Positions 1 through 3,363 of a stretch of 32,000 bases of DNA are shown piece by piece. Every line of letters starts with the position of its first letter. Position 1 is the first letter of the stretch. The notes below the pieces were generated by a model. That model saw only the letters and a list, made by a program, of their open reading frames with translations. It was not told the origin of the DNA and did no database searches. This DNA is from Clostridia bacterium (GTDB lineage Bacteria; Bacillota; Clostridia; Christensenellales; Aristaeellaceae): contig JAZLIA010000056.1 of the NCBI GenBank assembly GCA_045617125.1, forward strand, positions 4,612 to 36,611, written 5' to 3'. The position numbers and the translations under genes were made by a program.

Positions 1-1204
1 GGATAAAGCCGTTCACGATCGCACCGGCTGCCTGTTCGGAAATATCGCCGTCCCGGGCCAGGTCTTTCATCAGCTCAGCCCGGGTGATCGGGTGTTTAAG
101 AAGCTGATACAGATATGCGCCGGTTTCCGTGAGGCGCAGATGACCGCTGTAATCCCGCTGAAGCTCCGGGGACAAAGCCACCATGTTTATCTTTCCCGTA
201 CGGATCAGACGAGTCCCCTCTTTCAGGCACAGCACGGCATCCTCTGCAAAATGTTCGGGACACCGTTTGGCTGCCTTTTCCGCTTCCTCATTCATCCGGT
301 ATTCTTCCTGCATCTGCTCCGTCTTTTGCTTCGAGCTTTGCTGCTGCTGCAGATAAAGCGAATACTGCTTCTGTGCTTCCCTGATCCCCGCCTGCAAGAC
401 CCGATACTCAGGAAAATCCGCGGCATATTTCCAGAATTCATCACCGAAAGGACGCACATAGGAAAACTTCCACGGTTTTCTGCTTCCGCACCAATGCAGG
501 ATGAGCGTTTCATCCGGGAGCGCTTCTTCTTCCCCAAGGGTAAACTCTTCCAGATTGAAGCGGCGGCTTTCGCATATTCTCACCTGGCGGTAAAACGCCA
601 GGTTCAAAATATCCTGATCGCCAAGCAGCAATCTGTCGCCAAAGCCGTCCGCAATCTGACGGTAGAGATCGGGGGCCAGCTTTTCCCGCTGGGCTTTCAG
701 GTCAAACAGGAGCACACCGGCATTGAAATACACCACATCCTCCGGGAAAATGCCCTGACAGAGGCGGTTATATTTCGTTGTCTCCGAGCCAAGCTCACAG
801 CGGCACGCGGCCATCAGGTTTCCTTCCAGGTCCTGATGGTAAAATTCCTCCAGATCTCCGCGGATCACGAGATCCCCGTCCAGATACAGCACTCTTTCCA
901 CATCGGGCGGCAGAAGCTGAGCGGCAAACAGGCGAAAATAGGTCTCTCCCGTGATCCACGGACAACGCAGCGGCGGAGCACAGGGATCTTCTTCCGTGAC
1001 ATGGATCCATTCCACTTTTGCATGTCCGCTTTTTTCCGCGTCAGCGTTCAAAAGCGCCTTCGCGGTCTGATTCAGTTCGCGGAACATGACAAAAAGGCGC
1101 ACAGGACAGTTATTGTGCGCCAGAAAAGAATGAAACATGACCCTGGTGGGCATAAAATAGTCGTTGTTGACCGCAACTAACAGGTTCAACCATTCCTCTT
1201 TCAT
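1..1204 (-). CDS. GT8-family glycosyltransferase fused to a C-terminal PqqD-like RiPP recognition element (partial; C-terminus lies beyond the window start)
   Basis: Absent from the ORF track because no stop codon lies in the window. Hand translation of the minus strand from ATG 1204-1202 (GGAGGG at 1216-1211, 6 nt spacer) stays open for 401 codons to base 2. GT8 signature blocks: MKEEWLNLLVAVNNDYFMPTRVMFHSFLAHN, YFRLFAAQLLP, VLYLDGDLVIRGDL (DxD), YFNAGVLLFDL, GDQDILN, ILHWCGSRKPW. A Q/E-rich linker follows, then HLRLTETGAYLYQLLKHPITRAELMKDLARDGDISEQAAGAIVNGFI, which reads like a PqqD/RRE winged-helix domain. The + strand ORF 92..1180 is its antisense shadow. Confidence 0.8.
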   Translation of the reverse strand, partial: MKEEWLNLLVAVNNDYFMPTRVMFHSFLAHNNCPVRLFVMFRELNQTAKALLNADAEKSGHAKVEWIHVTEEDPCAPPLRCPWITGETYFRLFAAQLLPPDVERVLYLDGDLVIRGDLEEFYHQDLEGNLMAACRCELGSETTKYNRLCQGIFPEDVVYFNAGVLLFDLKAQREKLAPDLYRQIADGFGDRLLLGDQDILNLAFYRQVRICESRRFNLEEFTLGEEEALPDETLILHWCGSRKPWKFSYVRPFGDEFWKYAADFPEYRVLQAGIREAQKQYSLYLQQQQSSKQKTEQMQEEYRMNEEAEKAAKRCPEHFAEDAVLCLKEGTRLIRTGKINMVALSPELQRDYSGHLRLTETGAYLYQLLKHPITRAELMKDLARDGDISEQAAGAIVNGFI

Positions 1205-1232
1205 CAGAATCCCTCCGGTATTGATGATGTTA

Positions 1233-1265
1233 CCGCCCCGGAACGCATTCCGCTTTCCGGGGCGG
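1233..1265 (-). promoter_or_regulatory. GC-rich stem-loop between the last precursor gene and the glycosyltransferase gene (no U-tract; candidate attenuator or mRNA-processing/stability element)
   Basis: Perfect 10 bp inverted repeat, ccgccccgga (1233-1242) and tccggggcgg (1256-1265), with a 13 nt loop. It sits in the 112 nt gap between the stop at 1317 and the ATG at 1204. No T-run follows on either strand. Confidence 0.55.
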
Positions 1266-1316
1266 ATCTGACATTTCCAGCTGCTGCCTTTCTACGCCGG
1301 GATCAATGCGTTATGT

Positions 1317-1499
1317 TTACTGATCATCAAGATGACAATAATTGGACGGTATAAAACGTAACTGTTTCATTTTGTTGTTATTCGTAAAGATAGCGCCCCC
1401 GCTTACCTGCTCCAGTTCTTCTTCCGTCAGCTCCGCAAGCTTAACCTTCAATGCATGAAGTTCTTCCTTAAGGGCATCCAGTTCCTGCCTGGTTTTCAT
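1317..1499 (-). CDS. RiPP/bacteriocin-like precursor peptide P1 (60 aa; double-glycine leader 1499..1395, core AIFTNNNKMKQLRFIPSNYCHLDDQ)
   Basis: ORF track peptide MKTRQELDALKEELHALKVKLAELTEEELEQVSGG|AIFTNNN... GGAGGAA RBS at 1512-1506. The leader is near-identical to the two upstream paralogs and the core is unrelated. ELxxEELEQVSGG matches the double-glycine leader consensus. Confidence 0.8.
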   Translation of the reverse strand: MKTRQELDALKEELHALKVKLAELTEEELEQVSGGAIFTNNNKMKQLRFIPSNYCHLDDQ

Positions 1500-1517
1500 T
1501 GTTCATTCCTCCATCAA

Positions 1518-1700
1518 TCAAAGATATCTGAATTTTCCCTCTTCAACTATGCCTTTTATGTCTTTCACGCTCTTGCCCGTGAAGACAGCGCCTCCGCTCA
1601 CCTGCTCCAGTTCCTCTTCCGTCAGCTCCGCGAGCTTATCCTTCAATGCATAAAGTTCTTCCTTAAGGGCATCCAGTTCCTGCTTTGTCTGCATCATCAT
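1518..1700 (-). CDS. RiPP/bacteriocin-like precursor peptide P2 (60 aa; leader 1700..1590, core AVFTGKSVKDIKGIVEEGKFRYL)
   Basis: MMMQTKQELDALKEELYALKDKLAELTEEELEQVSGG|AVFTGKS... GGAGGAATG context directly upstream. It shares a 111 nt stretch, identical by manual comparison, with P3 that covers the leader plus AVFTG. Only 18 nt separate it from the P1 start. Confidence 0.8.
   Translation of the reverse strand: MMMQTKQELDALKEELYALKDKLAELTEEELEQVSGGAVFTGKSVKDIKGIVEEGKFRYL
1573..1683 (-). repeat. 111 nt direct repeat, copy A (leader-coding part of P2)
   Basis: The string ttgcccgtgaagacagcgcctccgctcacctgctccag...catccagttcctgc is identical base for base, by manual comparison, to 1952-2062. A diverged third copy lies at about 1393-1499 in P1, with a handful of substitutions. 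Confidence 0.9.
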
Positions 1701-1815
1701 TCCTCCATCCTGTTTTTATGGTCCATCTGCATATACGAAAATGATCCTCATGGCGGCCAGTCGGATATGAAGAATGATGATTTTTTCTTCCCGAAGGTCT
1801 TCCGCCCCGATCTTA

Positions 1816-2073
1816 TCATCTTTTTATAAACTCATTTTCATCCGTGCCCTCAAGCTTATTATTCAGCTTTCCCTTTGCATTAGGCTCGATCAGCTCATCT
1901 TCAAGATAAAGAAAACCGAGCGGGCCCGCAAGGAGATTTTTTATTCTGGTATTGCCCGTGAAGACAGCGCCTCCGCTCACCTGCTCCAGTTCCTCTTCCG
2001 TCAGCTCCGCGAGCTTATCCTTCAATGCATAAAGTTCTTCCTTAAGGGCATCCAGTTCCTGCCTGGTCTTCAT
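1816..2073 (-). CDS. RiPP/bacteriocin-like precursor peptide P3 (85 aa; leader 2073..1969, 50-aa core AVFTGNTRIKNLLAGPLGFLYLEDELIEPNAKGKLNNKLEGTDENEFIKR)
   Basis: MKTRQELDALKEELYALKDKLAELTEEELEQVSGG|AVFTGNT... AAAGGAGGAA RBS at 2090-2081. It is the first gene downstream of a near-consensus promoter at 2236-2208. Confidence 0.8.
   Translation of the reverse strand: MKTRQELDALKEELYALKDKLAELTEEELEQVSGGAVFTGNTRIKNLLAGPLGFLYLEDELIEPNAKGKLNNKLEGTDENEFIKR
1952..2062 (-). repeat. 111 nt direct repeat, copy B (leader-coding part of P3)
   Basis: Identical to 1573-1683. Identity stops 2 nt after the AVFTG codons on one side and at leader codon 4 on the other. Weaker homology, roughly 70% by eye, continues about 80 nt upstream of both genes (1701-1780 versus 2074-2150). 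Confidence 0.9.
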
Positions 2074-2207
2074 CGTTCATTCCTCCTTTAAATATCATTG
2101 TGGTCCCATGATATATACGAAGATGGTTGATAGGATGGCTGATCGGTATAAAACTTTTTTCAGGATCATGTTCTTTTCCGTTTTTCCGCACCGATCATTC
2201 CGCCTTG

Positions 2208-2236
2208 ATTATACCACTTATATTTCCCCATTGCAA
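2208..2236 (-). promoter_or_regulatory. Sigma-A type promoter driving the precursor array (-35 TTGCAA, 17 nt spacer, extended -10 TGGTATAAT)
   Basis: The minus strand reads gcaTTTGCAAtggggaaatataagtggTATAATcaagg. The -35 is at 2236-2231 and the -10 at 2213-2208. The ROK stop codon (2220-2218) lies inside the spacer. The predicted 5' UTR to the P3 ATG is about 125 nt. Confidence 0.55.
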
Positions 2237-3363
2237 ATGCCGCTCATATACCTGCGGGTCAGATAAATGCCCGCGCCGATCGCGGCAGAATCATCCGTAT
2301 ACAGGCTGGTTCTGATCCTGACCTTTTCGCAGTCGAACGGGCATTCCGCCTGCACCATCCTTTCAAGCAATTCCACATCCGAAGGGAGCATATAGCGAAG
2401 CAGATACCCGCACAGCACATATTCCGTGTCCATCAGCATGCGGATGTTGCTGATGGTCAGCGCCAGATCATGCAGATATCTATTCCACACCGCCGCAGCC
2501 TTCTTATCCCCCGCACGCAGCTTGATAAAAAAATCCCGCAGCTTTTCTCCGGCATTCCTCTGCAGGGCATAGGCGGAGCAGTACGCCTCTATGCAGCCTT
2601 TTTTTCCGCAATAGCACTTTTCGCCGCCGGGATACAGGCACATGTGCTCGATCACGCTGCTGCTCAGCTCAATGCCCTGATATACCTTTCCGTTCACAAT
2701 GACCGCGCCGCCGAAATACCGGTTCAGATACAGCAGTACGGCATCCTTCATATCCTTCTGGATCCACGATTCCGCAAGCGCGGATGCCTCCGTATCATGC
2801 ATCATGGAGCAGGGATACGGGATGCAGCGTTCAAACTTCTCCAACAGCCTTTCTCCGCTGCATTCGAGGATCCTGCCGAACAGGAGCGAACCGCCGTCCC
2901 TGGAAACCAGCCCCTGTATCGCTATAGACACGCCCAGCACCTGCCCTTTTTCCGGATGAAGCTGCAAAAGCTGGCTCTCCGTCACTTCCGCGATCCTTTC
3001 GAAATAATCGTCCGTGCAGGAAAACATCCTCTGCTCATCAAAGGATCGCAGGGGCTTTCCGTACAGATCCACCACGACCACATGAAAGTATTCTTTTTGT
3101 ACGGCAATGCCCACAGCCACTTTTTTCGCAGCGGCAAACTGATACACCCTTGCTTTTCTGCCGCCGGTGGAATGATACATCCCCGTGCGCAGGATCATTC
3201 CCTGTTCCTCCCACAGCTTCAGGTTTTGGCTCACCGTGGGAAGGCTCATTTTCAGTTCCTGCGCGATCTGCTGTTTGGAAACCCCTTCCGATCCATACAC
3301 ATATCTGAGCAGCCGCAGCGAGTTTTGCTCTCTGACATCGGCGGTGGACAGTGTCTCCCCCAT
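2218..3363 (-). CDS. ROK-family transcriptional regulator (NagC/XylR-like)
   Basis: 381 aa. N-terminal wHTH (VSKQQIAQELKMSLPTVSQNLKLWEEQGMI), a sugar-kinase-like fold, and the ROK zinc motif CYCGKKGCIEAYCS. Confidence 0.85.
   Translation of the reverse strand: MGETLSTADVREQNSLRLLRYVYGSEGVSKQQIAQELKMSLPTVSQNLKLWEEQGMILRTGMYHSTGGRKARVYQFAAAKKVAVGIAVQKEYFHVVVVDLYGKPLRSFDEQRMFSCTDDYFERIAEVTESQLLQLHPEKGQVLGVSIAIQGLVSRDGGSLLFGRILECSGERLLEKFERCIPYPCSMMHDTEASALAESWIQKDMKDAVLLYLNRYFGGAVIVNGKVYQGIELSSSVIEHMCLYPGGEKCYCGKKGCIEAYCSAYALQRNAGEKLRDFFIKLRAGDKKAAAVWNRYLHDLALTISNIRMLMDTEYVLCGYLLRYMLPSDVELLERMVQAECPFDCEKVRIRTSLYTDDSAAIGAGIYLTRRYMSGICNGEI

Follow-up and report, generated by a model that had tools for sequence, protein, structure and literature searches.

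Conserved leaders beside hypervariable cores underlie both natural and engineered peptide libraries. In the prochlorosins, for instance, diversity is concentrated precisely on the core segment while the leader and the downstream intergenic DNA are conserved, and by what mechanism the cores are renewed remains unresolved even there (bioRxiv 10.1101/2020.03.09.984088; PMC2887384). In the cyanobactins (PatE-type precursors), near-identical recognition sequences flank hypervariable cores, which yields a natural combinatorial library (PMC13500794). Here we describe a locus of this kind in a 32-kb stretch of contig JAZLIA010000056.1 (hereafter the window, meaning the whole stretch analysed). It carries three tandem small open reading frames (ORFs) on the minus strand, in the order P3, P2, P1, each encoding a 35-amino-acid (aa) leader that ends in a double glycine (GG), with a core behind it that differs from gene to gene. 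Conservation of the leader beside hypervariable cores is a known pattern, and the locus is an interesting but not unprecedented case of it. P2 and P3 share a block of 111 identical nucleotides (nt), which was probably left by a recent, short gene conversion. The locus is a compact case for the question of core renewal, combining three paralogs with a datable conversion patch and an ortholog whose core has apparently been replaced.

The prochlorosins (ProcA with Nif11-type leaders, and ProcM; marine picocyanobacteria) resemble the peptide family to which P1–P3 belong in several respects. Both have many paralogs per genome, precursors that often lie away from a modifying enzyme, and a conserved GG-ending leader with hypervariable cores. 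In contrast to the prochlorosins, the host is of the gut Clostridia type, the cores of P1–P3 do not show the Cys/Ser/Thr pattern, and a lanthipeptide synthetase is absent. Instead, the adjacent gene encodes a family-8 glycosyltransferase (GT8) fused to a recognition element (RRE) for peptides that are made by ribosomes and then modified post-translationally (RiPPs). The leader itself is unrelated, with no match of P1–P3 to the Nif11 or NHLP leader models of NCBIfam or Pfam at E ≤ 1. Cyanobactins differ as well, since they have several cores per precursor and other enzymes, whereas P1–P3 each have one core with its own leader.

Another relevant comparison is with the GG leaders of class II bacteriocins and pheromones (e.g., the blp/com loci), whose export is carried out by peptidase-containing ABC transporters. 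The leader of P1–P3 likewise ends in …ELxxVxGG, and the double-glycine signal model TIGR01847 scores above its cutoff of 15.7 bits in all three (P1, 16.8; P2, 17.7; P3, 17.9). The double glycine is invariant in 59 aligned relatives, and tandem arrays of small peptide genes, as in P1–P3, are typical of class II bacteriocin loci. Weak matches were obtained to Bacteriocin_IIc, ComC and cerein 7B leaders. However, NF038167 (CTB family bacteriocin; 18–21.8 bits against a cutoff of 32) and TIGR03949 (cerein 7B/lactobin A; 19.8–21.1 against 21.5) stayed below cutoff, with only the GG-proximal leader segment aligning, and other bacteriocin and lantibiotic leader models also matched the P1–P3 leaders only under their cutoffs. 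Unlike those of class II bacteriocins, the leader is long, with an extra conserved N-terminal helical part, and adjoins an RRE-bearing enzyme that such bacteriocins do not need. No immunity gene, regulator or C39/ABC exporter was found near P1–P3.

Origin of the identical block in P2 and P3

The two copies of the 111-nt block (Table 1) are identical base for base, and adding even one more base at either end would break the identity. Outside the block, an ungapped comparison matches at 9/40 positions towards the low-coordinate (core) side and at 20/40 towards the high-coordinate (5′) side. No other repeat of 35 nt or longer exists within the window, which excludes chance as an explanation. Read on the minus strand, the block begins with the third base of codon 4 and stops 2 nt beyond the codons for AVFTG; it comprises leader codons 4–35, the five AVFTG codons that open the core, and another 2 nt. 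Both its identity and its end point had been recognized in the initial annotation of this DNA, which was also right in giving core lengths of 23 and 50 aa for P2 and P3 (counted from the GG), in noting few substitutions in the P1 copy (100/111 positions match the block), and in finding P2 and P3 dissimilar beyond AVFTG. It had, however, counted AVFTG within the leader repeat, with the divergence beginning right after it. Since the conserved part of the leader stops at the double glycine, AVFTG opens the core, and the divergence boundary lies five codons inside the core rather than at its junction with the leader.

The leaders of the three genes follow the pattern MKT(R/K)QELDALKEEL(Y/H)ALK(D/V)KLAELTEEELEQVSGG, with P2 starting as MQT…; the P1 leader has 7 positions that differ from P3 and 10 that differ from P2. 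In an alignment of the three units, which begins at the ribosome-binding site (RBS) and extends through the P1 core, each informative site was assigned to a class, with the 33 nt before the block (RBS and codons 1–4) and the 61 nt after it taken as flanks. Within the block, P3 agrees with P2 at all 11 informative sites (0:11). In the flanks, by contrast, it agrees with P1 at 42 of 55 (42:13), and the difference between block and flanks is highly significant (Fisher's exact test, p = 2.3e-6). The 5′ flank of P3 matches P1 at 26/33 positions and P2 at only 16/33, and the two flanks are 79% and 54% identical to P1. Aligned without gaps, the cores of P1 and P3 agree at 58% of their nt (local-alignment shuffle test beyond residue 5, p = 0.001), whereas beyond AVFTG the P2 and P3 cores show no detectable similarity (p = 0.74). 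Hence, P3 has a mosaic structure, with P1-like sequence in the RBS, the first codons and the core but a leader block identical to that of P2, whose core is unrelated to that of P3 beyond the first five residues. Discordance of a block from both its flanks is what defines a gene-conversion tract between paralogs.

Substitution rates (Nei–Gojobori estimates of synonymous, dS, and nonsynonymous, dN, divergence) separate the two histories in the array. Between P1 and P3, the leader has a dS of 0.26 and a dN of 0.025 (dN/dS about 0.1), and the core a dS of 0.47 and a dN of 0.60 (dN/dS about 1.3). Since dS is alike in leader and core while dN is far higher in the core (24 times that of the leader), P1 and P3 are ordinary diverged duplicates, with a leader under purifying selection and a core that is unconstrained or diversifying. 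Between P2 and P3, the leader dS is only 0.047, owing to a lone synonymous difference that lies outside the block, and the core beyond AVFTG is saturated. P1 has 5–6 synonymous leader differences from P2 and P3. The initial annotation had proposed recombination rather than duplication followed by drift, and had suggested comparing dS in leaders and cores. This comparison supports recombination for P2 and P3, but P1 and P3 show exactly the plain duplication and divergence that had been discounted.

The 111-nt patch thus sits in diverged paralogous sequence and ends on both sides where the homology of P2 and P3 ends. Because the mosaic structure of P3 is significant, we infer that the identity is best explained by a recent short gene-conversion patch, which is also the simplest history. 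A single recent, non-reciprocal homologous exchange between P2 and P3 would have made it, and its abrupt ends would follow from the patch coinciding exactly with the homology that P2 and P3 still share. Two points temper this account. Either P2 or P3 may have been the donor, and the array is known from one contig, so that a misassembly is formally possible.

Apparent core turnover and alternative origins of the identity

An alternative explanation might be that P2 and P3 arose by a very recent duplication of the whole gene, after which one core was replaced through leader-anchored recombination with another family member. Modular core swapping of this kind had also been suggested in the initial annotation. 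The unrelated cores of P2 and P3 would fit such a history, and the thousands of family members with a conserved leader could serve as donors. Yet, the identity halts at the 5′ end too, at codon 4, and the RBS and first codons of P3 are P1-like, not P2-like. The promoter-proximal flanks of P2 and P3 are only ~71% alike, while a recent duplication should have left them identical. Moreover, the P1-like flanks of P3 are old, so it is the block that is young, not the core. For P2 and P3, we therefore consider a core swap unlikely; the pattern is that of a short conversion patch rather than of an exchanged core cassette.

Further evidence on core replacement comes from P1. We compared P1 and its surroundings with L001, the sole orthologous locus found; a scan of genome contigs with the glycosyltransferase protein and scans of metagenome contigs with a GT8-RRE profile and with the window-type leader pattern gave no further orthologs. 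Without any indel being needed, identity between the window and L001 is 84% in the leader, 35% in the core, 80% in the 3′ intergenic region and 95% at the start of the glycosyltransferase gene. The prochlorosins show the same picture: a variable core flanked by a leader and a downstream region that are both conserved. Reading frame is kept, and the core slot has the same length at both loci despite its unrelated sequence: two codons past the TAA of P1 comes a second in-frame TAA (window 1311–1319), and in the alignment the stop codon of L001's precursor falls on this second TAA. At third codon positions, the match is at a random level in the core (7/26) but not in the leader (24/34, p = 0.0015), which lends some support to the idea that the core was replaced rather than merely mutated. 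With surroundings this well conserved, a core at random identity would be in line with cassette swapping. However, the proportion of synonymous differences (pS) is higher in the leader (0.48) than in the glycosyltransferase gene (0.18), which suggests that the whole precursor gene was substituted from another paralog.

The identity of P2 and P3 might also be an assembly artefact, in which short-read metagenome assembly equalised or mis-joined the leader copies at the repeat or among mixed strains. The assembly is indeed of the metagenome type, and the proteins are singletons on a single contig of 36,959 bp. The repeat of 111 nt is nevertheless shorter than typical reads and final k-mers, tandem arrays are the rule for this leader family in 33 independent assemblies, and there are no other repeats in the window. 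In addition, both flanks of P3 are congruently P1-like, which argues against a mis-join at the repeat, because a mis-join would separate them. We regard an artefact as very improbable.

Functional constraint on the leader DNA or mRNA (a structure or regulatory site), with no recombination at all, could be suspected from the striking conservation of the leader protein over thousands of genes, but is scarcely plausible: leader nt identity across the family (0.72–0.74) does not exceed aa identity (0.73–0.75), within or between genomes, pairs with 97–100% identical leader peptides still differ at ~10% of their nt, and P1 carries its synonymous differences from P2 and P3 at one and the same locus. 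On the family-wide figures, a constraint at the RNA or DNA level was rejected. A diversity-generating retroelement was rejected as well, as the scanned ORFs of the window contain no reverse transcriptase domain and the sole repeat covers the conserved, not the variable, part.

Organization of the array

The coordinates of the precursor genes and other features are listed in Table 1. In each of P1, P2 and P3, a GGAGGA RBS precedes the ATG by 6–7 nt. P2 has alternative in-frame ATGs at 1697 and 1700, and 18 nt separate its stop codon from the start of P1. The three cores contain 1, 0 and 0 Cys residues, and a single conserved hydroxyl residue is common to all of them, the Thr of the A(V/I)FT motif.

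Table 1. Positions of features at the precursor locus (window numbering) and of the Ser-rich precursors at other loci (numbering of the respective locus).
Feature	Position	Strand	Basis or remark
P3, 85-aa precursor	1816..2073	−	ORF list; identical protein annotated on NCBI contig (P0121)
P3 parts	leader 2073-1969 (35 aa, GG end); core 1968-1819 (50 aa, AVFTG start); stop 1818-1816	−	
P3 RBS GGAGGA	2086-2081	−	
P2, 58-aa precursor	1518..1694	−	ORF list; the 58-aa form is the annotated one (P0123)
P2 parts	leader 1694-1590; core 1589-1521 (23 aa, AVFTG start)	−	
P2 RBS GGAGGA	1706-1701	−	
P1, 60-aa precursor	1317..1499	−	ORF list; P0122
P1 parts	leader 1499-1395; core 1394-1320 (25 aa, AIFTN start)	−	
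P1 RBS GGAGGA	1512-1507	−	
Exact 111-nt block, P2 copy	1573..1683	−	Maximal exact identity with 1952-2062
Exact 111-nt block, P3 copy, putative gene-conversion tract	1952..2062	−	Maximal identity and mosaic test
P1 homologous segment, unconverted	1378..1488	−	100/111 identical to block
Upstream region of P2	1716..1743	−	71% identical to 2098-2125 upstream of P3 (repeat family D2); diverged paralogous 5′ flanks
Promoter-like site TTGCAA, 17-nt spacer, TG-TATAAT	2208..2237	−	~135 nt upstream of P3; consensus scan only
GC-rich 11-bp stem-loop without U-tract, between P1 and glycosyltransferase gene	1233..1265	−	RNA fold
GT8 glycosyltransferase with C-terminal PqqD-type RRE	1..1204	−	Full protein P0001, 415 aa; window lacks last 14 codons
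Ser-rich precursors	L008 3932-4201; L045 1237-1464; L046 2259-2567; L047 97-447; L049 1-213		Second conserved leader

The intergenic region between P1 and the glycosyltransferase gene folds better than shuffled sequence (z = −2.2), and its stem-loop, which is partly conserved in L001, is possibly an attenuator or mRNA stabiliser. The P3–P2 spacer folds no better than shuffled sequence, and no intrinsic terminators were found between the genes of the array. The G+C content of the precursor array (window 1200–2250) is 43–47%, compared to 52–60% in the flanking genes. Elsewhere in the window lie genes for sugar and NAD metabolism and for an ABC-2 system; no peptidase-domain exporter, reverse transcriptase or transposase occurs among the scanned ORFs.

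The adjacent GT8-RRE enzyme

The glycosyltransferase gene begins 113 nt downstream of P1 on the same strand. Its product (P0001) matches Glyco_transf_8 (PF01501) at 6e-32 and PqqD at 24.8 bits (cutoff 23.4), with no match to PF00535. Both domains are found in all seven members of the family (7/7), and the DxD motif (D109/D111) is invariant. Owing to an alignment of only seven sequences, the glycosyltransferase part of the AlphaFold2 model was poor, and only the RRE part was used. In the latter, residues ~320–415 form three strands and three helices, modelled with a confidence (pLDDT) of 78–93. In Foldseek searches, this C-terminal domain resembled leader-bound RREs (TbiB1 5v1v, TM-score 0.79; 6jx3, 0.77; PqqD 5sxy, 0.75; also 8t19), and the N-terminal part resembled GT8 structures (3tzt, LgtC, UGGT and GlyE). 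Thus, an enzyme with a PqqD-like RRE adjoins a precursor gene, which is the arrangement of RRE-dependent RiPP pathways. The enzyme is probably a leader-guided peptide glycosyltransferase, as predicted from its domains and gene context. The fusion is rare, with seven clusters at 90% identity among 5.8 billion proteins. Compared to its 89% ortholog in L001, the gene has a dS of 0.21 and a dN of 0.06 (dN/dS 0.28), and has therefore been maintained by selection.

At every GT8-RRE locus examined (the window, L001, L008/9, L045, L046, L047/48 and L049), a gene for a GG-leader peptide lies directly upstream on the same strand. In L001 this peptide has an MKT-type leader, as in the window. At the other loci, where the enzymes are 45–48% identical to P0001, it has another leader (…LNEVVNGTDTENLMVEV…GG) followed by a Ser-rich core, for which no NCBIfam model reached its cutoff. 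These Ser-rich precursors are likely the true substrates of the distant enzymes. Peptides of the MKTKEEL type also occur elsewhere at some of these loci: in L045 they lie further upstream, in L049 downstream of the enzyme.

Glycocins (sublancin with SunS, glycocin F) are likewise ribosomal GG-leader peptides, which are glycosylated by a dedicated cytoplasmic glycosyltransferase before export. Their enzymes, however, are of the GT2 type (SunS-like) and lack a PqqD-type RRE, while the window enzyme combines GT8 with an RRE. Glycocin cores fold as a helix-loop-helix with two nested disulfides (four Cys), in contrast to the cores of P1–P3 with 0–1 Cys. A GT8 fold with a DxD motif, as in the window enzyme, is shared by GlyE of S. 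pneumoniae, which acts on serine-rich repeat adhesins, and by LgtC-type enzymes, and the likely Ser-rich substrates at the distant GT8-RRE loci recall this glycosylation of adhesins. Yet, the adhesin- and LgtC-type enzymes have no RRE, and their substrates are large proteins or lipooligosaccharide (LOS) instead of peptides with a leader tag. Fusions of an RRE with a glycosyltransferase have been flagged by genome mining only, are uncharacterised and are of the GT2 type (PMC7470986; PMC12710340, where the glycosyltransferase is PF00535). We found no such fusion of the GT8 type described in the literature, nor any match to the leader motif in the literature searched, and both the MKT-leader family and its GT8-RRE partner appear to be undescribed so far.

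A different group of loci (L002–L007; e.g., L002 1556–8059) encodes a GT8 fused to an HprK-like 'ScmC' domain (TIGR04249), clustered with a 35-aa peptide and a discrete PqqD. These clusters also contain a 149-aa peptidase-like protein, NTP_transf_5, an ABC exporter and GT2. Relatives of P0008 with this composition (GT8 with HprK-like domain, discrete PqqD, SpI-like peptidase, NTP_transf_5 and ABC transporter) resemble the LPP clusters of PMC13381572. Unlike LPP or paeninodin-type clusters, the window locus has no kinase, peptidase or transporter.

Proposed function of the locus

In the pathway that we propose, the array would be transcribed from the promoter-like site at 2237–2208, and the stem-loop at 1233–1265 may modulate read-through from P1 into the enzyme gene. 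The RRE domain is predicted to bind the leader of P1–P3, upon which the GT8 domain would attach a sugar to the core at a Ser or Thr (predicted O-glycosylation). A peptidase-containing ABC exporter encoded elsewhere would then cleave after the GG and secrete the peptides. Taken as a whole, this explanation, in which tandem GG precursors with a shared leader lie beside a GT8-RRE enzyme, one leader carries a conversion patch, and the peptides undergo leader-guided glycosylation and export, seems to us fairly probable.

Several observations weigh against it. The glycosylation of P1–P3 is a prediction, and their cores are not Ser-rich. Directly upstream of the distant GT8-RRE relatives lies the other, Ser-rich precursor, and P1–P3 may therefore be neighbours of the enzyme rather than its substrates. 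In L045 and L049, the MKTKEEL-type peptides stand away from the slot upstream of the enzyme, and the 33 other loci of the leader family have no GT8-RRE. Furthermore, there is no C39 peptidase/ABC exporter in the window or near other arrays; Peptidase_C39 matched none of the 20 larger window ORFs scanned for it and none of more than 100 neighbours of the other arrays.

Alternatively, P1–P3 might be unmodified, class II-type secreted peptides (bacteriocins or signals), next to an enzyme that has lost its Ser-rich substrate or acts elsewhere. This would concern the function only and leave the conversion untouched. The distinct Ser-rich precursors paired with the distant enzymes, the abundance of the MKTKEEL-type leader at loci without the enzyme, and the few hydroxyl residues in the P1–P3 cores all point in this direction, and we take such a coincidence to be possible. 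However, in the window as in L001, the enzyme is intact and evolves under purifying selection. An MKT-type precursor lies 113–119 nt upstream on the same strand at both loci, with no Ser-rich precursor at either. Finally, over its last 13 residues, the leader of the Ser-rich precursors (NELTDKEVEQVVGG) is similar to that of P1–P3 (AELTEEELEQVSGG).

If the enzyme does glycosylate leader-tagged peptides, as the proposed pathway assumes, it would be a new and portable tool for peptide glycosylation. One may speculate further that GT8-RRE and the MKT(K/R)(E/Q)EL…ELTEEELEQVSGG peptides constitute an undescribed class of leader-guided, O-glycosylated peptides of gut Clostridia. In such a class, one leader would serve as a universal modification and export tag for thousands of cores, and leader-anchored recombination would replace or re-pair these cores into a prochlorosin-like library. 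In its full extent, we consider this doubtful.

The leader family at large

P1–P3 belong to a very large family with a 35-aa leader and hypervariable C-terminal parts, made up of thousands of uncharacterised peptides of gut bacteria. A word-index search yielded ~80 peptides with a nearly identical leader (consensus MKTKEELNALKEEVETLNKKLAELTEEELEQVSGG) and wholly different C-terminal parts. A profile built from 59 family members, searched against 1.84 billion representatives, matched 4,176 representative clusters at E ≤ 1e-3 and still 2,586 when the threshold was set to E ≤ 1e-10. In species-representative genomes, a degenerate DNA pattern of the leader located 33 genuine loci with arrays of up to 10 genes. 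All of these are in metagenome-assembled genomes (MAGs), mostly of Clostridia (Oscillospiraceae, Lachnospiraceae, Anaerovoracaceae and others). Arrays with the MKTKEEL…GG leader in gut Clostridia MAGs (L010–L044) include L015 485–5451, L013 241–1713 and L029 378–2172.

Among 70 leaders of the family, mean nt identity was 0.739 for 132 within-genome pairs and 0.718 for 2,283 between-genome pairs, and aa identity was about equal to nt identity in both cases. Leaders within a genome are thus no more alike than those between genomes, and homogenisation of leaders, which the initial annotation had raised for this array, is therefore local rather than family-wide. P2 and P3 of the window are the most similar of the within-genome pairs and of all pairs, save one true ortholog pair (L011/L013). 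Across the family, the leader is kept by purifying selection on the peptide, to which a probable local conversion has been added at the window locus.

The neighbours of the 33 arrays are heterogeneous. No protein family was enriched among more than 100 neighbouring ORFs, and none of these encodes a C39 peptidase, a radical SAM protein, an RRE or another RiPP enzyme. The ABC exporters next to leader genes in L020 (285–2597 and 3478–5754) and L038 (338–2548) have an N-terminal extension of ~190 aa, which matches no Pfam family, C39 included. This extension may be a divergent leader-processing domain.

The cargo behind the family leader ranges from peptides of 8 aa to domains of ~90 aa, some of them Zn-ribbon-like, which suggests that the leader exports mini-proteins as well as peptides. 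In P0163, P0189, P0193, P0204, P0130, P0267 and P0314, for instance, the GG leader is followed by a Zn-ribbon-like CxxC…CxxC cargo or a domain of 60–90 aa. In P0201 and P0202, the N-terminal heptad part of the leader is internally duplicated 2–4 times, which indicates slippage or unequal recombination within the leader DNA. Two MAGs, labelled Lachnospiraceae and Ca. Limivicinus, have two leader genes with their cores and an adjacent AMP-binding/PP-binding gene in common (L011 2794–3170; L013 1337–1713). Their leader-coding DNA is identical, which indicates either horizontal transfer or a binning error.

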